Assembly (NCBI GenBank): GCA_963790205.1
Contig: CAWBNQ010000014.1
Coordinates: 128,001-192,000 of the forward strand
Source: Nitrospirota bacterium
GTDB lineage: Bacteria > Nitrospirota > UBA9217
Direction: 5' to 3'
Length of the DNA: 64,000 nt
Below, in pieces: positions 30,025-53,956 of this stretch. The notes beneath the pieces are model-generated. The model was given only the letters and a program-made list of their open reading frames with translations, was not told the DNA's origin and made no database searches. Position numbers and translations under genes: made by a program. Each line of letters starts with the position of its first letter. The stretch's first letter is position 1.

Positions 30025-30591
30025 TTACTTACGTTTTTCTCTGCGGGCTCTGTGGTTGATGTTCTTTTCCAACTCCAGCAGCCTCTTCTTCATCCCGAGC
30101 CCGCCCGAGAACCCGCCCAGCGTACCTGCCGAGCTGATCACCCGGTGTCAGGGGATGATGATCGGGACGGGATTGGCCCCCATCGCTTGGCCCACGGCCC
30201 TGCTGGCCCGCGAATTCCCGATCCGCCTGGCAATCCACGCGTAGGACCTTGTCTCGCCGTAGGGAATCTCTGCCGCCGCCTTCCAGACTGCCTGCTGGAA
30301 GCACGTATAATAACGCAGATCGAGCGGGAGGTCAAATGACACCAGTTCGCCGGAGAAGTATGCCCCGAGCAGCTTGGCCGCCTTTTCCAGCATCTTCATA
30401 CTCCCTCTCCCTTCGCGGGAGACGGTTGGTGTGAGGGGGGATGTCGCGCTGTCCAGTTCCTGCTGCACAGCACGTTTGCTCTGCCGGGGGAGGGCGATCA
30501 TCACGATCCCCTTTTCCGACACCGCCACACCCGCCCATCCGAGGGGGCTCCGAAAAACAACGCTTCTTATTCCGCATTCTGAATTCCGCAT
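30025..30591 (-). CDS. ogt: Methylated-DNA-protein methyltransferase with selenocysteine at the active site (UGA at 30148-30150)
   Basis: [47 protein letters not shown]: UGA replaces the Cys of PCHRV; SECIS-like hairpin follows. Confidence 0.88.
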
Positions 30592-33810: not shown

Positions 33811-34377
33811 TTAGAACCCTTCCAAAACCCTGCTCCGCAGCGTCCAGGCAATGTCCTGGCTCGCCTGTTTGATGGCCGCGTCCTTTGCGACCCTCGTGTC
33901 CCTGATATCCGCTCTCCCCGCCGCATCGAAGGAAACGGCATAATCGGATATGAAACTGGACTCGATCCCCTTCTCCTGCCAGAGGACCTTCTTTGATCTC
34001 AGGTCCTCCAGACTTGCATCCACCACGATGTGCACCCGGTACTGCTGCACGTAAGCCTGGAGATTGTAGGAGAGCGGGGTCACTTCGTATTTCATGACCT
34101 TGCCGCGGAGCGCAAGTTCCGCCTCATCGAGGCTCATGACCTTCAGCCTGCCGTCGGTCAGGAATTCCTCCACCACTGCCTGTGTCACTTCCACATCCAC
34201 ATAGGGTTCATTCGTGGCGTTAAAGAACACCGGGATCGAGATGGTACGCACTCCCTCCGGCACGATCCCACCCGTGCCGGAAATATGATAGCCGCAGGAG
34301 GATACGATCAGGACCAATACCAGAGAAAGAATGAGTCTGACGCTTTTACTCCGCATTCCACACTCCACCTTCCGCAT
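33811..34377 (-). CDS. lptE: LPS assembly lipoprotein LptE
   Basis: Lipobox VSSCGY; ISIPVFFNATNEP; leuS-lptE-holA order. Confidence 0.88.
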   Translation of the reverse strand: MRKVECGMRSKSVRLILSLVLVLIVSSCGYHISGTGGIVPEGVRTISIPVFFNATNEPYVDVEVTQAVVEEFLTDGRLKVMSLDEAELALRGKVMKYEVTPLSYNLQAYVQQYRVHIVVDASLEDLRSKKVLWQEKGIESSFISDYAVSFDAAGRADIRDTRVAKDAAIKQASQDIAWTLRSRVLEGF

Positions 34378-34381
34378 TGAT

Positions 34382-36859
34382 TTACACCACCACATTCACC
34401 AGCTTGCCCTGGACCACGATGACCTTCTTTGGGGTCTTTCCGTTCATGAATTCCCTCACCTTGGGGTCCGCGAGGGCAGCGGCCTCGACGTCCTTATCAG
34501 AACCGCCGGCGGGAAGCGTGAGTTTGCTTCTGACCTTGCCGTTCACCTGCACAACGACGGTAAGTCTCCGACGCGACGATCGCTTCGGGATCATACTTTG
34601 GCCAGGGCGCGTTCGCGATGCTCTCCTTGTTGCCGAGCGATTCCCAGAGCTCCTCGGCAAAGTGCGGCGCAAAAGGAGCGATCAGCAGCATGAGCGCGTC
34701 GATCGCCAACCGCAGCACCGGCCCTTGCTTGTCAGGGTTGAACCCGTTCGACGCGTAATCGTACATCTCATTCACCATCTCCATGAGCGCCGAGATCGCG
34801 GTGTTGAAGTGGAACTCGCGCTCGATGTCCTCGGTCACTTTCTTGATTGTGAGGTGGGTCTTGCGGAAGAGCTTGTCCCCCCGCGCTTCGGACCCCGCGG
34901 GCTTGACGTTTTTGACCGCCTCGCTGTGCTTGTACACGATGGTCCAGACACGGTGGAGGAACCGGTATGCGCCGTCCACGCCCTGGTCGCTCCATTCAAG
35001 GTCGCGTTCCGGCGGCGCGGCAAAGAGCGAAAAGAGCCGCGCCGTGTCAGCGCCGTACTTCGTGAGGATAAAATCCGGGTCCACCACGTTGCCCTTGGAC
35101 TTGCTCATCTTGGCGCCGTCCTTGATCACCATGCCCTGCGTGAGCAAATTCTTGAACGGCTCATCGCCGTCAAAAAGCCCCAGGTCGCGTATCACCTTGG
35201 TAAAAAATCTCGCATAGAGCAGATGGAGCACGGCGTGCTCGATGCCGCCGATGTACTGGTCGACGCTCATCCAGTAACCTGCCGCTTTTTTATCGAAAGG
35301 CGCTTTGGTCTCTTTCGGGGAGCAGTAGCGGAGGAAGTACCACGACGAGTCCACGAAGGTGTCCATCGTGTCCGTCTCGCGCCACGCTTTGCCGCCGCAC
35401 TTCGGACAGGTCGTTTCCCGGAAGGACCGGGACTCGGCCAGGGGCGAGCGGCCCTTGCCCGTGAGCTCGACATCGACCGGAAGCCGCACCGGCAGGTCTT
35501 TTTCGGGCACCGGCACGGTGCCGCAAGCGTCGCAGTAGATGATCGGGATCGGCGTGCCCCAGTAGCGCTGGCGCGAGATTCCCCAGTCGCGGAGCCGCCA
35601 GTTCACCGTGCGTCTCGCCGATCTTCTTCTGTCTCAACATAATCGGCGACCGTCTCTTTCCCCCTCGCATTCGGCGTACCGTCAAAGGGTCCCGAGTTCA
35701 CCATCGTCCCTTCCGCGACAAAGGCCTCCTTCATTGCCCGGGGCTCGAGGTTCTTCTCCGCATTCTGGATCACGACGCGAATGGGAATAGTATACTTCTT
35801 CGCGAACTCGAAGTCGCGCTGATCGTGGGCGGGCACGGACATGATCGCTCCGGTGCCGTATTCCATGAGAACGAAGTTGCCGACCCAGACCGGGACCTTC
35901 TCGCTGTTCAACGGGTTGACGGCATAGGCGCCGGTGAAGACGCCTTCCTTTTCCTGTTTCTCGTCGGTGCGCGCCGCCTTGTCCTCGCGCATAACGCGCT
36001 GGCAGAACGCGCGCACGTCGTCGGCCTGCGGCTTCCCCTTGATGAGGGATTCCAGCATGGGGTGCTCCGGCGCTATGCTCATGAAGGTCACGCCGAAGAG
36101 CGTGTCCGGCCTCGTGGTGAAGATCGTGAGCTTCTCGCCCGTGCCCTCGACCGTAAAGTCCACCTCCACGCCGACGGACTTGCCGATCCAGTTCCGCTGC
36201 ATCGTGAGCACGCGCTCCGGCCAGCCCGTAAGTTTGTCAATGGAGGAGAGAAGTTCCTCGGCGTAGTCCGTGATCTTGAAAAACCACTGGTCGAGCTCCT
36301 TGTGCTGCACCACGGAACTGCAGCGCCAGCAAAGACCGTCCTCCACCTGCTCGTTCGCGAGCACGGTATTGCAGGACGGACACCAGTTCACGTACGAGAG
36401 TTTTTTGTATGCGAGGCCGCGCTCGTACATCTTGATAAAGAACCACTGGTTCCAGCGGTAATACTCTTCGAGGCAGGTGGTCACCTCGCGGTCCCAGTCG
36501 TAGGACAGACCAAGCCGCTTCAACTGCTTGTCGCGCATGAAGGCGATGTTCTCGAGGGTCCATTTGGCGGGATGGATACCATGCTTGATCGCCGCGTTTT
36601 CCGCCGGCAGGCCGAAAGAATCCCAGCCCATGGGATGAAGCACGTTGAAACCGCGCATCCGCTTATAGCGCGAGATCACGTCGCCGATGGCGTAATTACG
36701 AACGTGGCCCATGTGGATCCTGCCTGACGGGTACGGGAACATCTCGAGACAGTAGTACTTCGGCTTCGACGCGTCTTCCGTTACCGTAAAGGTCTTTTGC
36801 TCGGCCCAATGGCGCTGCCAGCGCTCTTCAACTTTCTTAAAATCGTACCGTTCGTCCAA
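34382..36859 (-). CDS. leuS: Leucine-tRNA ligase (apparent frameshifts near 35620 and 34565, likely sequence errors)
   Basis: [42 protein letters not shown] spread over three ORFs. Confidence 0.95.
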
Positions 36860-44477: not shown

Positions 44478-45093
44478 GTCGATAAACCCCCGCTTGGTTT
44501 GTCGGAAATTGTCCCGGGCTCTTTATTAAAACATACTTAGCCCGATGAACAAACGGTCCGCTCCAAAAAGCTTGCCTTTCCCGTGGTGATCAGTAAAAAA
44601 TGATTATGATGAGTTCACATCCACGAATACCTTGTCCAAGGGAACTGTTTTTTGAAAATGCAAATATGCTCCACAATCGTTTTCAGAGGCCCAAATTAAT
44701 TTTACCCGAGTATCTTTGCAAAAGCAATCTCTCGAATGTTCTCAGCTTCGTTTCAGCAGATGGAACTGGGTTTTATTGCAGTCAATCCAAACCCGCGGGC
44801 CCATAACGCCCGCGCTTTCAGCACACACCCGTAGCAGCCGCCCGTTCTCTGTCTGAAGCAGGCCGGCTCTCCCTTCATGCATGCCGTCTTCCGCTGCATT
44901 GAAATCATGATACCATCAGGGACTCCCGGAACGGGAGTTTATTTGTGTAAAACCCAACCGTTAAATCATGGCCCCTGCTTTGATATTCTGCTATAATTTG
45001 TCCATAGATTTCTGATAAATAGCCTTCCTTTTTGAACCTACAGCTCGGACCTTGAATCGTAAATCTTGCATCCCCGTTTTCGAAGGAGCGTTC

Positions 45094-48000
45094 ATGAAGC
45101 ATTATAAATTCGATGTCATCATAATCGGCGCGGGCCCTGCCGGCGTGACTGCCGCGGGCGCGCTCGCGGGAACGGGCATCTCCGTAGCCCTGCTCGAGGC
45201 AGGCGTATACGCCGGGGCCGAGAACTGGTCCGGGTGCGTGTACTTCGCGGAGGGCTTGGCGGAAAAGGACTGTTTCGGGACCGAGGCCGTTCTGAAAGCC
45301 CCGTTCGAGCGGCGCGTGGTCCGTCGCGGCACGCTCGTGCACAACGGTCTTGACGTCGTGGGTGTGGAGCTTACCGACCCGGACGCGTTCAAGAACTGCT
45401 ACACCGTGCTCAGGCCGGTATACGATCCCTACTTCGCGGACCTTGCCCGCAGAAAAGGCGCAATCCACATCACGGAAACGACGGTCACCTCGCTCATCCG
45501 AAAAGACAACAGGGTCATCGGCGCGGAGACGAACCGCGGCCCGCTGTATGCCGACCTTACCTTCATTGCCGAAGGCGACGCGTCGCATCTCGTCCGCGCT
45601 GAACAGCTCGAACGCGCGGCGGAACCGCACTTTCTCCAGGGGGTAAAGGCCGTGCTCTCGCTCAAACCCGAAGAGCTCGAGAAGCGGTTCAGGCTCGGCC
45701 CCGGCGAGGGCGCGGCCTATGAACTGCTCCTCCGGAACGCCTCGATCGGGGGCAGGACCGCAAAGCTGAACGTCGGCGGCTTCCTCTATACGAACCAGGA
45801 CAGCCTCTCCATGGGCTACGTGGTCCCCCTCGACAACGTGCGGAACAACTACCGCGGCAATCACGACAATCTGTTCGAATGGATGAAGGGACTTCCTTTT
45901 ATCAAGGAACTGACGGAGGGAGCCGCGCTTTCAGCCTACGGCACGAAGATCATCAGGAGCGGCGGATGGCGGGAACGGCCGAAACTCATCGAAGACGGGC
46001 TTGTTGTCGGCGGCGCGTCAGCCGGACTCGGCGTCGACCTCCCTTTCCCGAATTTCACCGGCCCTGCCTCGGCAACGGGACTCTATTTTGCGCGGGCAGC
46101 CAGGACCCTCCTCCTGCACGGCCGGACGCCGGACGAGAAAAATCTTGCACAAGAATATCTCGACCCGCTCCGTGAGAGCGTTTACGGAAAGAACGCTCAG
46201 TATCTTTCTCAATGGCCGCATTACTTCGGAAAATCGAAGGTGCTTTTCGGCAGGACCGCGGACATGGCCTGCGGCACGGCCCATTTCCTGTCGAACGGAA
46301 GCCTTATCGAGACCGGGAGGTTCCTCAGAAACCACATCCTCTCCATCCGCGGATTGAAGGAAGCGATCACCGACACCGCACGCATGATCAGCAGCCTCAG
46401 GCTCTGGAAACCGATGGTGACCTCAACGATCAACGCCGGCACCTTCCGGCGCTGGTTTACGAATATCTTTAAAAAAGCTCCCGCGCGCGGGGCAAGGCTC
46501 GGCATCATCCTTCGCATTGCAGGCAAGGATGTTGATGCAACAACCCTGCCCTGGCCCGTGGGCCCGCTGATCAAAAGGCTTTCCCCCGCGCTCCTCAGCG
46601 CGCTCGAGCAAATCTACGGGAACGATGATCAGCCTGTCGGGAAAAAACTTTCAACAGCCTTGCGGCACGTCATAAGGGGCTTGCAGCTGACCGACATCAT
46701 CGTGCTTCCCCTGTTCGGCATGCTTCTCTTCATCATCGCTCTCGGCACGGCACTGTGGGACGCCTTTCGATTCTACGTGCTCAAAACACCGGTGGACCGG
46801 TTTCTTGCCGAGCCGGTGATGGCGTACAACGAATCGCAGAGAAAGGCAAGGGACCTCGACGCGGTCAGACCGGCCGTCAGCCTCGACGCAAAGCTCGCCA
46901 CGAACACCTACCGCGCCGGAACAGTGTCGCACATAAGAACGCTCTGGCCGGAATCGATCAAGGCCCAGCCCGACATGTCCCAGGCCGGGCTCTGGTGGGT
47001 CTGCCCGGCGCGCGTCTACGTCTATGACGCGCCGCCCTTTGCCGGCCGCGGCAGGGTGACGGTGAACTATGAGAACTGCATCAAATGCGAGTCCTGCTGG
47101 CGGGCCGAGCCCGGCCGCGTTCTCTGGGGAAGACACACGGACCACAAGCTCATCTACCGGCCCGAGAGCGCGGCAATGGCGTCCTTGATCGAGACGATGA
47201 AATCAGCGCCTCCGAAACAACAGCAGGCAGCGACGGCCCCGGTCCTGCTCGAAGAAACAGTGTGGTATGTGAGCGACGGGATCAAGCGTTCCTCGCGTGC
47301 CGCGCTGATGGCGTTAACGGCCTTCAGGGACAGCGTGGCAAAACTGCCCTCCTCGGCCGACAAAACGCGGCGGGCATGGCCGTCGGCGCTCGGCAGGAGA
47401 CTCGGAGAAAAGCTCGAGAAGCTCGAAGCGGCGTTCGTGAACGACGGCAGGTCCGCCCAGACCCACATGGTCCGGGCGGAGCGAAATAATCTCGAGGTCA
47501 GGCTTGCCGAAGGAAGATTATTTCATGCGCTCTACTGCTGTCAACGGGTCGAGCAGCGGCTCCAGGCATGGACCGGCGATCGCGAAGACGCGCGGAGCTC
47601 CGACCCGGCAACAACAAATACGGGCAGCACTCTTACCTACGATGAAGTATCGAGTTTATTCCCCGACAGGGTCGTGAAGCAATGGGAAGAGGGTCCCCTG
47701 CCCCCGGAGTGGGCCGGAAAGCTATGGGCCTTCATCTCCGAACATCAGGACGCACCTCAAGACGCCGTGCGCGCGCTCTCGTCCGTCAGTCCCGCGCTCG
47801 GCCTGATCGCCGCGTATCAGTTCCCTGCAGTCGCAGTGCTGGCAAAAGCGGAAATCACCCTGCCTCCCGGCATCTGCGCAGTAGCTTCGGACGATATCGA
47901 CATCCGTGAATCGATCGACAGCGTGAAGCTCCGGGGAACGTTCCATCTTATGCCGCTTGCCGCGTGCAATACTCTTCTCGTTACCGCAAACAATAAAGGC

Positions 48001-51000
48001 CATATCGTTCCGCTTTCCACACCGGGGGTCACGATCACCCCCACGCCGGCGATCGGTTTCAGGGCAGCGGCGCTGTCCGATGTCGTCCTGGACTGCACCG
48101 TGAAAAAACAGGCGCTCATGATCGCCGAGGGGAGAGACGCGCCCGATGCGGCCTCGTACCTCGCGATCGCGTTGGGCGCCGGAGACTATCTCTGCAAAAG
48201 GATAAAGGAGCATGCTGCCGGACGGGTCCAGTTCCCCGGCCAGATGCTCGACACCGAGGGCCGTGACGGCATCGCGAAGCTCGGTGCGGTCAAAGCCATG
48301 ATCGGCCGGACCGAAGCGTGGCGGCTCCTGCTGGAAACCCTGTACAAGACATCGACGGAATCCTCTCCCCTCTGGGGAGAGGGAAAGGGCCTGCACCCAG
48401 CGTTTACGAGTGCGAGTGCAGGGCATGAGGGGGCGCTCCGAACTCAGAACTCCAAACTCGATTTCAACCTCCTCTGCGCCTCGGTCGCCGCCATGGCTTT
48501 CAGTCCCGAGCCGGGCGCCATGGGCTACGACGCGGGCCAGGTCTTCGGCGGGTTCGCCTATTCCGAGGACGACCTGCTTTCGAGGTTCTACCGTGACAGT
48601 TCGCTGTTCAGGTTCCTTGCGCCCGGCTATGGGGCTTCGGCGAAACTGCACGCCGCATTAGGCGAAGAAAGCCGCGATCGGTCCCTTTCCCTTTTCAGCA
48701 GTCTCGATGCCGGCCGCGGAGAGCCGCTGGGACCGCCGGCATTGCGTTTGACGGCAATCACCAGGAAGTGTACGTTGATTTCATCTCGTGCCGATGCTTC
48801 GCTCGCAGGCGAAGCCAAGGCCATCGCGCTGGCTGTTCGCGATCTACTGGCAATAATCGAGAAAGGGCTGGACGAAGGCAAAAGCATGGAGGCCGAGGCT
48901 GCCGCTGTCGAGGTGCTGCTCGCATTAGCTGAAGACGCGGTACAAAAAGCGGAGCTGTCCGCTGGGCGCGGCGCCGTGTCCCCGACGGCCGTATTCCCCG
49001 TCGAACCCGCGGGGAATGAGGTGACACTGGATGCATACTACGAGGCGTTCTGTGCACCTTCGGGAGCGCCGCACAGATCCGGCCGCTTCCTCACGACCGC
49101 ATTCGACCGTTCCGCCCGCTTCGTGCCCGAGATGCAGCTCCATGACGCGAAACTCAGGGCTCGCTGGATCGAACTCGCGGACTGGTTCAAAAAGAACTGC
49201 CGCGACAAAAAGTTCGACGGCCTTCATATCGAGCGCTACATCGAGAAGGTCCACCGTCTGCCCGACGAGGTGCTCCAGGCGGCAAAAGACAACAAATGGC
49301 TCGCCACCACTATCCCCGGAACCGAAGACGGGTTGGGATGGCGGAAAGCGGAATACTACATTTTAAACGCCATGGCCGGCAGCTTCGGCGATGCGGGCAT
49401 CGACCTTTTGATCATGGCGAGCACGAGCATCGGCACTACCCCGATCCTGCTCGGTCTCGAGGAAGAACTGCCGCGCGTGCGCGAAGAGCTGGCGCCCCTG
49501 GCACAGGATGAACGAAAGCTCGGCGAGATCGGCGCGCGGCTCGCGAAGCTCGTCCGGACCCTTTCCAATCCCAACCCCGCCTGGATCAGGAAAGAATACG
49601 AGGCCGTGATGAAGCTCGTTGACGAACGCATTCGCCGCACCCGCGTGGTCAAATACCTTGCCGCCAACTTTCTACGGGCCTTCTACGGCGCGGGCATCGC
49701 CGGCAGGCGCGGAGACTTCAACGGATTTATTTCGAACCTCAAACACGCAGACGAACTGTTCGCAAAGCTCATGCCCGACGTGCAGGCGGCGCTCGATGAG
49801 CTGCCGCGCCGTGAGCGCTGCCACAAGCTCTTTCTCCGCTTTCTCGGCCACGGCGGTGTAAGCGCCTTTGCCCTGACCGAGCCCACGGCGGGGTCCGACT
49901 CGGGCGGGGTCAAGACCACGGCCAAGCTGCAAAGCGCCGGAGCTTACACCGCCTTGACGACGGCAGGTATTCTTTTTATTTGAATGACGACGAGAAGAGC
50001 ACCAGGTACCTGATCGATGCGGACAAGATCGTTTTCCTCGATCACGGCATTGCCTATCACACGCCTGACGGGCAGGTAGCGCCGATCAAGTACGACAAGT
50101 ACGACTACGCGACCGATCAGGGTATTCGCTACTACCTCCGTAACGGGAAGGAATGTCCGTTCCACGACATCGGCCAGGTGCGGGAATCAAATGCCGGACT
50201 CGTGTACGAATATTACAGCATGACGGGCGCAAAGATGTGGATCACGAACGGCAGCATCGCGACCCAGTTCTGTCTCTACGCCCAGACGCCGGAGGGCGTC
50301 ACCGGCTTCATGGTCGACCGGCACGCCGAGGGGCTCAAGGTCGGCGCTGACGAGAAAAAAACGGGCCAGCGCGGCTCGCCCACGAACGAGATATCGATCG
50401 ACAGCGCACGCGTACCGCGCGAGGCAGTCATCGGCTACGAGGGACATGGCCAGGTGAACGCCCTCGAAACTTTGAACGTCGGCCGCTGCGGCCTGGCCGT
50501 GGTGTCCGGCGCGCTCATGCGCAAGCTCATGCAGGAAGCGGCCCAGGCAATCCCCGCCTCGCCCGAACGCGACAGCCTCCTGGGCGAGGCCGCGGCCGTT
50601 CTCTTCGGCAGCGAAACCCTCGCCTATTACCTCGTCGGGCTCTTCGACCGGCCGCATGAGTCGGTGCGCATGGAATCGGCCATAGCTAAATACGTCTGTT
50701 CCGAGGACATCCATGAACTCCTCACGCTCGTGGAGCGCGCCTTCGGCCCGGCGGGCCAGACCGAGAAGTTCCTGCTCGAAAAAGCGCGCCGCGACAGCCG
50801 CATCCTCACGATCTACGAAGGCACGAACGAAGTGCAGCGCTTTCTGATCATTAAAAGACCTGATCGCCCAGGCCGCTTCCTGGCCCGAGCTCACTGAACA
50901 GCAGGAAGACGCCGCCTTGCGAACGCTGGCGTCGTGGAAAAGAAGGCTCCGGCTGCACGTCAAAGAAGCCGCGGCTCTCCTCGGCGACGCCGGCTGGTCC

Positions 51001-53079
51001 GATGCCATGCTTCAGCCCGCCCTGTTCCCGCTTGCCGAGATGGCCGGCGAGATACTTCGGCTTGAATGTATTTATTACCGGGTGAGATGGCTGAACGATT
51101 CAAACGCACTTCTCGCGCAAAACTCTCCGGACTATATACCCGGGATGCAAGCCGCGGCGCAACGCGCTGCCGACAGGGCAATAGCTCGTCTCGAACACCT
51201 CAGCGGAAAATATGTATCAACAGGGGAGCGTGTGAGAGACGGCTTGGACATGCCCGAGGTGGTTATTACAGATGCCGTCCTCGCCGGCATGGCAGCAAAA
51301 CCTTCTCGACACTATGAAGCGCCGGGAGCGCTGTATGCCCCGGTACGCGTCCTCTCCATTGTCAGGCCAATCGCCGACATCTCTCCCGGCCCGAGAGTAT
51401 CGGACGGACAGCTCCGGGAACTTGTCTGGCGGCTGGACCCGTCCGACCTTGCCGGGTTGTCGCACATGTTCGCGCTCAAGTCCCAAAGCGGTCCTCAGGT
51501 GATCGTCGATGTGCTCATGCCCGGCGGCCCCGAGCATGACGCCCTCCTCAGGATGTCCGCGGGTGTTCGCGTTGACGGCCTGCTGCGCCTGGATATCGGT
51601 CCCACTGCGAGACCCGGCGCGTACGTAAAAACCGTGAGAGACCTCGAGGCATTGCAGCAATACGACCTTATCATTATTGGAGCGGATTGCCGGAATGGCG
51701 ACCAAAGTCTCGGCGCTTATCTTGCCGGCGCCCTCAAGAGGCTCCACTATCGCCGCGAGAAGATAGAGGTCAAGACAGACGGCAGCGGTTTTTTACACGT
51801 TGCCCCCCCGGCGGTGATCAGCGTCACGGCCATGACCCCGGAGCCGCTGATGTGCATGACCGATGCCGTCGGTTCTATGATGACGCGAATACGCGTTCTG
51901 GAATTCGCCGGAAAACCCGCTGCGGCGTCCGAACGCTTCGAACAGCCTGCCGGCTCCGCGGCAATCACCCGGATGATCGCCACGGTCGGCCAGGCGGCGG
52001 AATATCTCAAGTCCTTTGCCGCATCTGCGAGCGCAGCTTCTGCGCCGGATTACAAAGGAAGCGTCACGAAGGGCACGTTGAGCGATGGCGATGCGGTCTG
52101 GGCCGTGCTCGATCCAAATGAACCGAGGTCGAACCTGGCTGTTCTTCGCGCATCGCGCATGACAGCGGACCTGCTCGGCAAGAAAATGCGCGCCGCGATC
52201 GCGGCGCCGCGATCGCTGTGGCCGCAGCTTCTGGGGCTTGCCAGGGCGAATGGCTGTGAGCAGGCGTACTGCATCGATACCAGAGGGGGCAGGCTGTCGA
52301 ACGACGGGAAACGCAATCTGCTTCGGTCGCTCATCAAGACGTCTGATGCGACGTTTGTGCTCGCGGGAACGGAGTGGGCCGGTTCCTTCGCCTTTGTGGC
52401 GGGCGAATGGGAAGCTTCGAACAAGACGGTCCTGCTCTGCTCCGGCGTAACGCGCATCGAGAAGCAGGGAACGGGCGGGCTCGTCTTTTCCCTGCCTGTC
52501 TATGAAGGCAAGCTCGTCAGGCTCTGCGCATATGAGAAGGGGCCGGCCTTCGTTACGGTCGCCTTTGAGTCTGACTTCCCCGCCCCTTCAGAGCGGGCCG
52601 ATTTCAAGGTCTCGGCCCTCGCCATTGAAATCGATTCCGACTGGATCATGCCCCTGTTGCCGATCGCTGTGCCCACGCTCTCCCAAGCCGACGTGATCAT
52701 TGACCTCGGCTACGGCATCAGGGACAAAGCGGGATATGAACTGGCGCAGGAGCTGAAGAAGAAACTGGAATCCATGGGCCTCGCGCCCCTGTTCGGCGCC
52801 ACGCGCAAGGTCACGCAGGATTTGAAGCTCCTTCCGCTCGATGCGCAGATCGGCCAGACCGGCGTTCGCGTGAATCCGAAACTCATCATCGCCCTCGGCA
52901 TCTCAGGCGCGCCGCAGCACATCGACTACATCGGCGCGCGCGCGGAAATATTGTGCTTCAACAAGGACACCGAGGCTCCTTTGATGAGGCTCAATCAAAC
53001 TCACGCTTCCCCACGCGTGCATCCGATCGCGGGAGACCTCTTCGTGACCGTGAGGGAGTTGATCGAGAAACTGGGATAG
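45094..53079 (+). CDS. Giant fusion FixC-FixX-ACAD-ACAD-EtfB-EtfA, about 2660 aa (apparent frameshifts near 49940-49955 and 50855)
   Basis: GAGPAG FAD motif; CPARVY...NCIKCESC; AFALTEPTAGSD, KMWITNG, IYEGTNEVQR; ETF-alpha QIGQTG...GISGAPQH; three ORFs join after removing three single bases. Confidence 0.8.
48362..48460 (+). repeat. REP-like palindrome, CCTG...CAGG unit and 7-mers translated in frame inside the fusion protein
   Basis: CCTCTCCCC-TCT-GGGGAGAGG; 24-nt identity with 312-335; CTCCGAA CTCAGAA CTCCAAA. Confidence 0.85.
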
Positions 53080-53100: not shown

Positions 53101-53946
53101 ATGAACGATCAATTTAAAATCAATGCCGGAAATCCTGCTTGACCGCCCGCTGGCGCCGCCGGAGTTTGCCGGCGCGACAATGCTGAGACGCTCTCAAACG
53201 TTAGCCCGCAGCAGGACCCGGCAGCGATCAAAAGCGCGGTCAGACAGAAGTATGCCGAGGTAGCTGTTTCAGCGGCGGGCAAATTCCAGTATCCTACCGG
53301 CAAAGAGGGCGCGGAGCTCCTCGGATACGACCGCGCCCTTATCCAAAGCGCGCCTCCGCAGCTCCTTGATTCCTTTTGCGGCGTCGGAAACCCCTTTTCA
53401 CTCGGAGAGATCCGTCGCGGGTCGGCTGTGCTGGATGTCGGCTGCGGGGCGGGTTTCGATATGTATGTTGCGGGCCGGCTTGTCGGCGATCAAGGCAGGG
53501 TGTGCGGGATTGACCTGACCTATGAAATGGCGTCCCTTGCCCGGATGAACCTTGCGAAGTCAGATATTGCAAACGTTGAGATCAAAACGGTTGATATGGA
53601 ACACATTCCCTATCCTGACCATTCCTTCGACGTGGTCATATCCAACGGCGTCATCAACCTCTCCCCCTCCAAGCAGGTCACGTTCGAGGAAATCTATCGC
53701 GTTCTGAAGCCGGGCGGGGCACTGCAGTTTGCCGACGTTGTACTGGATAAAGATTTACCTGCATCCCTTGCAGGAAGCGCTGAAGCGTGGTCGCAATGAA
53801 TCGGCGGCGCGATCCCGGTCCGGGATCAAACGAGATTGCTGGAAGAGGCGGGTTTTAAGGAAGTTGAATGGTTGGGGATGACGGGTTTTCGAACCTCGGC
53901 GTATACCGTCGGCGCTCTGTTCAAGGCTCATAAACCGAAATCGTAA
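53101..53946 (+). CDS. ArsM-like SAM-dependent methyltransferase selenoprotein with in-frame UGA at 53140 and 53797
   Basis: RBS GGAGGG; FCGVGNPF, LDVGCGAG, DVVISNGVINL; AWSQ-UGA-IGGA; hairpin after each UGA. Confidence 0.8.
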
Positions 53947-53956
53947 GAGTGAGCAT

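Follow-up and report, generated by a model that had tools for sequence, protein, structure and literature searches.

Introduction

The ACAD-ETF-ETF-QO chain normally operates through brief encounters between separate proteins that are hard to capture, and its defects lead to multiple acyl-CoA dehydrogenase deficiency in humans. In mitochondria and proteobacteria its parts are VLCAD or ACAD9, EtfAB and ETF-QO (PDB 3b96, 8phe, 1efv, 2gmh), and electrons pass from acyl-CoA through FAD, ETF-FAD and a [4Fe-4S]/FAD pair to quinone. Within homo-oligomeric ACAD subunits, the RxQF and QxxGG motifs are the partner-side FAD motifs. Related components are found in the NADH-oxidising FixABCX/EtfABCX complexes of Thermotoga maritima (PDB 7koe) and diazotrophs, whose FixX pattern supplies ligands for two [4Fe-4S] clusters. 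ChsE3/FadE34 is a fused two-domain ACAD. According to the summary in PMC11153573, the heteromeric ACADs of Mycobacterium tuberculosis (ChsE1-ChsE2 and ChsE4-ChsE5) divide one active site between them, one partner holding the flavin ring, the substrate and the catalytic Glu and the other the ADP-ribose of FAD. SaETF is a monomeric, bifurcating EtfB-EtfA fusion whose partners are separate proteins, and genes of this type adjoin ACAD, ETF-QO or FixCX genes (PMC12042025).

Here we describe a locus within a window of 64,000 nucleotides of Nitrospirota DNA in which enzymes that normally act as four or five separate proteins, leading from acyl-CoA to membrane quinone, are fused in a single chain. The domain order is an ETF-QO/FixC-type module with one [4Fe-4S] site, a degenerate dehydrogenase (ACAD1), a catalytic VLCAD-type dehydrogenase (ACAD2), EtfB and EtfA. 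We put at about 70% the probability that this conserved polypeptide carries out the acyl-CoA dehydrogenase step of fatty-acid beta-oxidation and passes the electrons to menaquinone. The chemistry itself is already known; our literature search found no description of the single-chain architecture, and the networks of monomeric ETFs in PMC12042025 could include such fusions.

Results

One gene, three extra bases

The locus falls into three frames on the + strand (45094-49983, 49980-50897 and 50857-53079), which the intact homologue P0002 (2637 aa) tiles at 88, 84 and 82% identity. Read with an X at each of three four-base steps, the whole fused gene (45094..53079, + strand) comprises 2660 codons with no internal stop, and the resulting chain aligns end to end with P0002 in one alignment at 86.5% identity. 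Its start Met (ATG 45094) is shared with the homologues and is preceded by a Shine-Dalgarno-like AGGAG (45084..45088, +). At least 205 full-length homologues occur in Nitrospirota, Verrucomicrobiota, Planctomycetota and Acidobacteriota: 98 of the 119 other matches listed first were at least 2400 aa long, and in a second set 107 of 116 new matches reached at least 2200 aa, 100 of those 107 carrying seven motifs in order. The read-through and these intact copies bear out the single chain of about 2660 aa proposed in the preliminary description, and its domain order agrees with Pfam, PDB profiles and models. Automatic annotation names of the homologues reflect one domain only. In a quick tree the fusions group by phylum label, with one Betaproteobacteria bin inside Nitrospirota.

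The breaks had been ascribed to single extra bases in short homopolymers. The frames do join once bases are removed, but three bases are involved, two at the first junction (49941 and 49947, +) and one at the second (50849, +), these positions being those chosen by the aligner, and the third lies outside any homopolymer. Without base 50849 the junction peptide reads ILKD, matching the homologues, and not IIKD as first given. All three bases are missing from contigs of runs X1 and X2, which derive from a 99%-identical strain and not from own-sample reads of the assembly; since 73 of about 8200 positions differ from the window, X1 and X2 represent another strain. Runs X3 and X4 do not span the break sites.

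This strain difference leaves some room for the gene of the window strain to be a true recent pseudogene, and in one relative (G005) the gene carries an internal deletion that looks real. We nevertheless consider such decay very improbable: the essential, single-copy leuS of the same genome is split by similar extra bases, dsrA on the same contig is also split, and every tallied motif of the fusion is intact. Judged against the near-identical strain and leuS, the three breaks are very likely assembly errors.

Nor do the homologues share a break point. Matches run in one frame in 55 of 61 loci and the other six have frame changes at scattered sites, which excludes a consistent natural split at the window's positions; among the nine changes of locus L031, one lies no more than about 15 residues from the first break in the window. 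None of the 21 shorter matches of the first listing ends at a break. The nearest of them, P0117, extends about 40 residues beyond the third break; it could represent a form that naturally lacks the ETF, or a truncated one.

The putative quinone-reductase module

The chain begins with a FixC/ETF-QO-like FAD and quinone domain (aa 1-400; 45094..46293, +) that has a glutathione-reductase-type FAD fold with GxGxxG at 45127; G12, G14 and G17 are kept in 95 of 98 homologues, the remaining three being gaps. FixC is the best match in both sequence and fold, the P0002 profile hitting 7koe_C with E 2e-27 and the model superposing with Z 41.4 (rmsd 2.2, 422 residues aligned). The model of aa 1-690 also aligns with porcine ETF-QO 2gmh (Z 31.2, rmsd 3.2, 473 aligned), from which the fusion differs in being nearer to FixC in sequence and in an added helical region (46294..46893, +). 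This region is likely to bind the membrane: the model shows amphipathic helices together with a single hydrophobic one (aa 532-561; 46687-46776, +), and 91/98 homologues have a hydropathy peak; PF21162 matched weakly (E 0.014), and an Atlas search with the membrane region gave no usable match.

The Fe-S domain that follows (46894..47169, +; Cys codons 47002, 47077, 47086 and 47095) was at first described as a FixX-like ferredoxin. Its only four conserved Cys occupy the ETF-QO position in 98/98 homologues and 39/39 loci, and correspond to one cluster fused to the flavoprotein, as in ETF-QO, instead of the two of FixX. A modelled four-helix linker bundle (aa 728-827; 47275..47574, +; mean column conservation 0.53) leads to the dehydrogenases.

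Two dehydrogenase folds, one putative active site

ACAD1 (47599..48993, +) was recognised by its fold (aa 836-1194 of the model, Z 27-28), by a VLCAD profile alignment that reaches into the C-terminal extension (E 1.3e-6) and by motif tallies. It retains RxQF (48223), QxxGG (48538), SEDD and YRD and has none of TEPxxGSD, KxWITN and the catalytic YEGT; its own-side FAD motifs and catalytic Glu are gone and the fold is kept. In the window, one ACAD1 loop carries an in-frame insertion with a dispersed hairpin repeat (48346..48460, +; 38 other blastn matches in the genome; folding energy -41.6 kcal/mol), which makes the protein 23 aa longer than P0002 at this point. The beta domain of ACAD1 measures 25-27 aa, versus about 93, in 10 of 39 loci, all from Verrucomicrobiota, with the partner-side motifs kept.

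ACAD2 (49141..51300, +; TEP motif at 49873, KMWITN at 50232, catalytic Glu codon at 50817) is of the VLCAD/FadE type. A model of a relative's copy (pLDDT 88.9, pTM 0.88) superposes over its full length on FadE5, VLCAD and ACAD9 (Z 27-29), including the C-terminal helical extension of the VLCAD/Bacillus FadE class. The nearest folds are long-chain dimeric ACADs, the type used in the mitochondrial and proteobacterial chain; unlike VLCAD and ACAD9, ACAD2 has two extra inserts, about 125 aa helical and about 95 aa beta (conservation 0.72 and 0.63). The catalytic Glu of ACADs lies in the J-K loop (PMC11153573), and ACAD2 has it there, together with TEPxxGSD (97-98/98), KxWITN (98/98) and YEGTNE (98/98).

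The FAD motifs are thus split between the two folds. The R, Q, F and Q, G, G residues are present in ACAD1 of 98/98 homologues and at the proper sites of ACAD2 in 0/98 and 0/104, and TEP and KxWITN occur at most once per chain, always in ACAD2. QxxGG-like matches in ACAD2 of 16/104 proteins fall on a different helix and were discarded. Ordinary stand-alone ACADs such as P0376 have both motif sets within one domain. When ACAD1 and ACAD2 of a relative were predicted as a complex, they scored 0.85 and the best of three controls 0.00. The score of 0.85 may stem from resemblance to ACAD dimers already solved, and it fits pairing within and between chains alike; the mark used is reached by 116/157 solved complexes and 2/215 mismatched pairs. 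At least 74% of contacts recur between runs, partner pLDDT is at least 84, and the predicted interface includes QxxGG, SEDD and YR of ACAD1. The motif split and the predicted complex support the earlier suggestion that the degenerate ACAD acts as a pseudo-dimer partner. In the single FAD site of such a pair, ACAD1 would form the partner side and ACAD2 the own side with its Glu. The homodimer of the mitochondrial and proteobacterial chain would here be replaced by a one-site pseudo-dimer.

By sequence and model, this split follows the same pattern as that of the ChsE pairs. Those are alpha2beta2 tetramers encoded by separate genes and acting on steroid side chains, whereas both halves of the fusion are VLCAD-like and joined to an ETF and a quinone reductase. 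ChsE chains were absent among the top matches listed in the ACAD1 and ACAD2 profile and fold searches, and the split therefore likely arose independently. Direct comparison of ACAD1 with ACAD2 is weak (BLASTP E 1.6; hhalign probability 2%, E 0.023), their homology being shown by PDB profiles and fold. The best 150 representatives included no stand-alone ACAD2 complete with both inserts. Most of the free proteins nearest to it are ACADs of 530-650 aa, and some are tandem ACADs of 740-770 aa in which both halves preserve more motifs.

Features of this region also bear on whether the architecture may be right and the chemistry different, with another acyl-CoA as substrate (branched-chain, dicarboxylic or carrier-bound), or with ACAD1-ACAD2 pairing or ETF shuttling between the chains of an oligomer. 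The two conserved inserts have no assigned role, ACAD2 falls far below the cut-off of the NCBIfam Bacillus FadE model NF058590 (144 against 600 bits), and the complex model is compatible with pairing between chains. We regard these variants as unlikely, given that the fusion co-occurs with FadJ in 26/26 genomes and that the ACAD1-ACAD2 linker is nearly constant in length, at 39 aa in most rows.

An apparently non-bifurcating ETF

The EtfB-like domain (ETF domain III; 51313..51935, +) matches EtfB chains with E 4e-22 to 1e-11, and its AMP/bifurcating-FAD loop at 51679 is decayed in the alignment and deleted in 10/39 loci. EtfA domain I (52090..52670, +) has LPVYEG at 52492, where another residue takes the place of the conserved interface Arg. 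EtfA domain II (52678..53079, +; PF00766 E 1.6e-18) has an intact electron-transfer FAD site with the motifs GATR, QIGQTG, SGAPQH and NKD (Arg 97/98, His 96/98), so that all three ETF domains and the transfer-FAD site are present. As in SaETF, EtfB precedes EtfA on one chain; unlike SaETF, the fusion appears non-bifurcating and has its partners on the same chain.

Bifurcating ETFs are marked by a DGDTAQ zipper and an Arg-165 equivalent, and canonical AMP-binding ETFs by a DxDxNQ-type zipper along with this Arg (PMC8958531). Here the DGDTAQ zipper occurs in 0/98, 0/107 and 0/28 proteins, Arg is outside the five commonest residues of the Arg-165 column, and the canonical features are likewise missing (zipper 0/98 and 0/107; Arg motif 1/98 and 0/107). 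The fused ETF has no AMP-binding motif, which sets it apart from its mitochondrial and proteobacterial counterparts.

The chain is therefore no FixABCX, and the comparison drawn earlier with FixABCX and ETF:ETF-QO must be limited: the parts match, EtfA and EtfB homologues among them, but the nucleotide-binding features of both bifurcating and canonical ETFs are lost. A fused, electron-bifurcating FixABCX that couples NADH oxidation to ferredoxin reduction and quinone reduction would agree with the FixC-like N-terminus and with some bifurcating EtfA and EtfB chains heading the profile search; set against the missing zipper, the replaced Arg-165 equivalent and the loop deletions, it is extremely improbable. 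The fusion further differs from FixABCX in having no bifurcating-FAD motif, Cys for one cluster instead of two and a single chain, and its likely donor is an acyl-CoA dehydrogenase and not NADH.

Beta-oxidation and respiratory context

The fusion is present in 26 of 201 phylum genomes, and all 26 lie within the 39 that have a FadJ-like gene, a count to be read with the kinship of these genomes and the strict cut-offs in mind; it occurs in 0/8 genomes with an E. coli-type FadE. Among the 13 FadJ-positive genomes without a fusion match, partial or deleted fusions or another FadE account for six, two are fragmented and have no explanation, and five belong to another family. The window genome has a fadD-fadI-fadJ operon without an ACAD, located elsewhere than the fusion, and two further ACADs. 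Two relatives without the fusion (G007 and G016) instead have separate fadN-thiolase-fadE-FeS oxidoreductase-etfB-etfA genes, a Bacillus-type fadN-fadA-fadE arrangement that apparently does the same job with an ordinary FadE (NF058590, 853 bits), a free ETF and a membrane Fe-S oxidoreductase non-homologous to the fusion. Within 8 kb of the fusion we found lineage-specific synteny only and no conserved functional neighbour gene.

The window genome also encodes futalosine-route menaquinone synthesis, haem-copper and bd oxidases, and dsrAB. The potentials are about -10 mV for enoyl-CoA/acyl-CoA and about -74 mV for menaquinone, so that electron flow from acyl-CoA to menaquinone would be slightly uphill unless the pool of quinone stays oxidised. 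These potentials, the FixC-like N-terminal module and a host that makes menaquinone and has dsrAB would all suit a chain that works chiefly the other way round, with menaquinol driving the reduction of enoyl-CoA, as an anaerobic electron sink comparable to E. coli CaiA with FixABCX. We hold this to be unlikely: the fusion accompanies FadJ and seems interchangeable with FadE-type oxidative dehydrogenases, and no conserved CoA-transferase or transporter neighbour was found in the 8-kb neighbourhood.

Discussion

We propose that the fusion acts in the oxidative direction, by what is likely the same route as in the mitochondrial and proteobacterial chain, here on one polypeptide and likely with menaquinone as the quinone. 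The cofactors, substrate, direction and within-chain electron transfer that we infer would be as follows. FadD, FadI and FadJ, encoded elsewhere, would provide and process acyl-CoA; the substrate may be long-chain, as the co-occurrence with FadJ indirectly suggests. ACAD2 would oxidise it with its Glu and one FAD, which we predict to lie between ACAD2 on the flavin-ring side and the catalytically dead ACAD1 on the adenosine-pyrophosphate side. The tethered, non-bifurcating ETF would accept the electrons singly on its mobile FAD domain, from which they would go on to the [4Fe-4S]/FAD pair in the N-terminal module. This module would in turn reduce quinone at the inner face of the membrane.

A bolder form of this proposal, to which we give even odds, is that of a self-contained acyl-CoA:menaquinone oxidoreductase on a single chain. 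It would hold three FADs and one [4Fe-4S] cluster; its only active site would be completed by a dead dehydrogenase fold, and its ETF, covalently tethered and with no need of AMP or of a second FAD, would move within the one molecule from dehydrogenase to quinone reductase and back. In several uncultured phyla such an enzyme would be where beta-oxidation begins, and it would act as a natural trap of the ETF:ETF-QO encounter.

It has been proposed that AMP is mere assembly glue in ETF (PMC8958531), and a natural single-chain version could show whether that is its only role. One structure of such a chain could also show the ETF flavin domain reaching both of its partners. More generally, the fusion would fill a gap in many uncultured Nitrospirota, where a beta-oxidation dehydrogenase is apparently missing, and is a potential one-gene module for acyl-CoA oxidation.

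A probably intact single-chain gene behind three breaks

In the assembly, the fusion gene (45094..53079, + strand) reads as three long frames (45094-49983, 49980-50897 and 50857-53079), which the intact 2637-residue homologue P0002, our reference for numbering, tiles at 88, 84 and 82% identity. With an X placed at three extra bases, the translation runs for 2660 residues without a stop and matches P0002 at 86.5% identity in a single alignment. The preliminary description of one chain of about 2660 residues (an ETF-QO/FixC module, a degenerate dehydrogenase ACAD1, a catalytic ACAD2, EtfB and EtfA) is upheld, with three extra bases rather than the two it had counted.

Contigs of a 99%-identical strain, from the public runs X1 and X2 of one study, carry exactly one base fewer at each of 49941, 49947 and 50849, with no further indel. 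X1 supplies a single piece spanning the whole stretch with 73 differing letters, X2 several pieces; two further runs (X3, X4) leave these sites uncovered. The X1/X2 contigs also lack bases at 35631, 35617 and 34566, where leuS (34300-36859, - strand), a single-copy gene in this genome (G000), falls into pieces in the window. The leuS case indicates that the assembly carries one-base insertion errors, and dsrA, on the same contig as the fusion, is likewise split. As had been suspected, the breaks in the fusion gene very likely stem from assembly errors. X1 and X2 represent another strain's contigs rather than reads from the sample behind this assembly, which leaves a small chance that the gene is a true pseudogene in the window's strain.

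Spread of the fusion

A first homologue search returned 212 relatives; 98 of the 119 further proteins listed have 2400 residues or more, and 94 measure 2600-2800. Searching again with a Verrucomicrobiota member as query brought 466 proteins with E values no higher than 1e-100. The matches listed include 116 not seen before; 107 of them reach at least 2200 residues, and 100 of these 107 carry the seven diagnostic motifs in the expected order. At genome level, 606 stretches matched and 61 loci were kept, with titles naming Nitrospirota, Verrucomicrobiota, Planctomycetota, Acidobacteriota and a few other groups. The match lies within one frame in 55 loci, and in 40 of these the open frame measures 2257-2929 codons (39 enter the tallies below, L039 being left out); the other six break at scattered sites, so homologues are not consistently split at the same positions. 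The read-through, the intact P0002 and at least 98 homologues of at least 2400 residues together confirm the single-chain fusion.

Judged from the names of the closest homologues, the window's host belongs to the Nitrospirota. In a quick tree, fusion copies cluster by phylum label, a pattern that fits an old fusion and gives no date. One copy from a bin titled Betaproteobacteria (L032) nests among Nitrospirota, by misbinning or transfer. P0117, named Candidatus Firestonebacteria, stops at 1973 residues, shortly past the ACAD2 core and without the ETF, as a natural short form or a truncation.

Architecture of the proposed electron-transfer chain

The first 400 residues match FixC from Thermotoga EtfABCX (E 2e-27). 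An AlphaFold model of residues 1-1200 (pLDDT 84.5, pTM 0.68) superposes on 7koe_C (Z 41.4, rmsd 2.2, 422 residues aligned), and its residues 1-690 on porcine ETF-QO (Z 31.2, rmsd 3.2, 473 residues). Four cysteines, invariant in 98/98 homologues and 39/39 loci, are predicted to ligate a single cluster, as ETF-QO does. The flavin and cluster parts are separated by amphipathic helices and a hydrophobic one (residues 532-561; hydropathy peak in 91 of 98 homologues); since the ETF-QO-like model packs these two domains against each other, we infer a one-sided membrane anchor, not a crossing.

ACAD1 is modelled as a full ACAD fold (residues 836-1194, Z 27-28), and its profile best matches VLCAD (E 1.3e-6); compared directly with ACAD2, it gave a negative BLASTP and a weak hhalign result. 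The ACAD2 profile lies nearest ACAD9/VLCAD, and a model of a relative's copy (pLDDT 88.9, pTM 0.88) superposes full-length on FadE5, Bacillus FadE, VLCAD and ACAD9 (Z 27-29). ACAD2 keeps TEPxxGSD, KxWITN and YEGTNE with its catalytic Glu (97-98/98), and has RxQF and QxxGG at their proper sites in 0/98 and 0/104 proteins. ACAD1 lacks the former three and keeps RxQF, QxxGG, SEDD and YRD (96-98/98). In ACAD structures, RxQF and QxxGG contact the FAD of the neighbouring subunit. These partner-side motifs persist even in the 10 of 39 loci, all Verrucomicrobiota, whose ACAD1 beta domain has shrunk to 25-27 residues from the usual ~93. According to PMC11153573, FAD-binding motifs are divided in the same way between the partners of ChsE1-ChsE2 and ChsE4-ChsE5.

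A predicted ACAD1-ACAD2 complex, computed on protein chains without FAD, scored 0.85 against 0.00 for the best control, a mark that 116 out of 157 solved complexes attain, compared with 2 out of 215 mismatched pairs; contacts agree by at least 74% between runs, with partner pLDDT of at least 84. The predicted interface joins QxxGG, SEDD and YR of ACAD1 to a Trp and the EKxG motif of ACAD2, RxQF not being among the residues named. Together with the complementary motif split, this prediction favours the proposal that the degenerate ACAD acts as a pseudo-dimer partner. As ACAD dimers are textbook pairs, the score may reflect likeness to solved ACAD structures, and the modelled pairing would fit within-chain and between-chain contact alike.

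An in-frame loop insertion in ACAD1 (48346-48460) consists of a repeat able to form a hairpin, with 38 further blastn matches across the genome; similar-looking in-frame stretches occur in other window genes, for example near 30500 and 33700. Stand-alone tandem ACADs of 740-770 residues (P0300, P0306, P0307, P0322) partly retain the motifs in each half.

Profile searches clearly recover EtfB, then EtfA, and the transfer-FAD site is intact (Arg in 97/98, His in 96/98). As PMC8958531 describes, a DGDTAQ zipper and Arg-165 are conserved in bifurcating ETFs and take a variant form in AMP-binding canonical ETFs. The fusion ETF differs from both: either zipper form occurs in 0/98, 0/107 and 0/28 proteins, 10 of 39 loci have lost the zipper loop, and other residues stand in place of the Arg-165 equivalent. 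These residues predict a non-bifurcating ETF, probably nucleotide-free at the AMP/bifurcating-FAD site, in which the covalent link would take over AMP's role in assembly.

Every part and the electron route are already known, and an EtfB-EtfA fusion alone has been published (PMC12042025). No description of the whole fusion was found in the openly available literature searched, PMC6678751 and PMC9038741 included, and NCBIfam has no model that it matches above cut-off.

Physiological role

Neighbourhood comparison found no functional neighbour gene conserved beside the fusion. The adjoining ArsM-like methyltransferase gene (53101-53949, + strand) has an in-frame TGA at 53797, after AWSQ, past which the frame stays open over some 50 codons. 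The gene matches selenoprotein methyltransferase models with scores under the cut-offs, and the TGA is a likely selenocysteine candidate.

G000 has one thiolase and one FadJ-like gene, both within a fadD-fadI-fadJ operon without an acyl-CoA dehydrogenase (G000:C2:45379-50724, or L090:7379-12724, - strand, behind a DEAD-box helicase gene); G009 and G010 share the order. Across 201 genomes of the phylum, the fusion ACAD2 (E at most 1e-60) occurs in 26 and a FadJ-like gene (E at most 1e-100) in 39, and all 26 fall among the 39 in a comparison by hand of the rows listed, a pattern rather than a statistic because kin genomes are not independent. Of the 13 remaining FadJ-positive genomes, two have the fusion's 5' part at contig ends, one (G005) an internally deleted fusion, two an E. 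coli-type FadE and one a 606-codon ACAD frame, while two are fragmented and the last five come from a different family. The fusion is absent from all eight genomes in which an E. coli-type FadE occurs. Instead of its single chain, G007 and G016 carry separate genes for fadN, thiolase, Bacillus-type fadE, an Fe-S oxidoreductase, etfB and etfA (G016 scanned, G007 by likeness). From the G005 copy (L093:5901-8213), residues of about 490-2420 in P0002 numbering are missing, and the genome holds a FadN-type cluster as well, an apparent natural loss and replacement.

The other ACADs of G000 are a PigA-like protein and one adjoining a ferredoxin-bearing EtfA. The latter pair (L098:4391-11727, on G000:C8) lies inside what we take, from gene names read at ORF starts, to be a fatty-acid-synthesis-like cluster, found in nearly all family members, and is possibly an ETF-linked enoyl reductase. 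A similar pair occurs in G011 and G024, both without a true 3-hydroxyacyl-CoA dehydrogenase match.

G000 encodes menaquinone genes of the futalosine route, two oxidases each of the haem-copper and bd types, and dsrAB (dsrA split in the assembly; dsrAB and oxidases at G000:C14:62669-64855, C2:27854, C5:204961, C5:290056 and C1:881377), which suggests a sulfate reducer also able to respire oxygen. The main rival reading is that the fusion runs in reverse; the potentials make the step from acyl-CoA to menaquinone slightly uphill, so that it should proceed best with the quinone pool kept oxidised by oxygen or some other acceptor of high potential. In these bacteria the fusion likely serves as the beta-oxidation dehydrogenase. 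As a single-chain version of an electron-transfer chain already known, it is real and conserved, and apparently undescribed so far.
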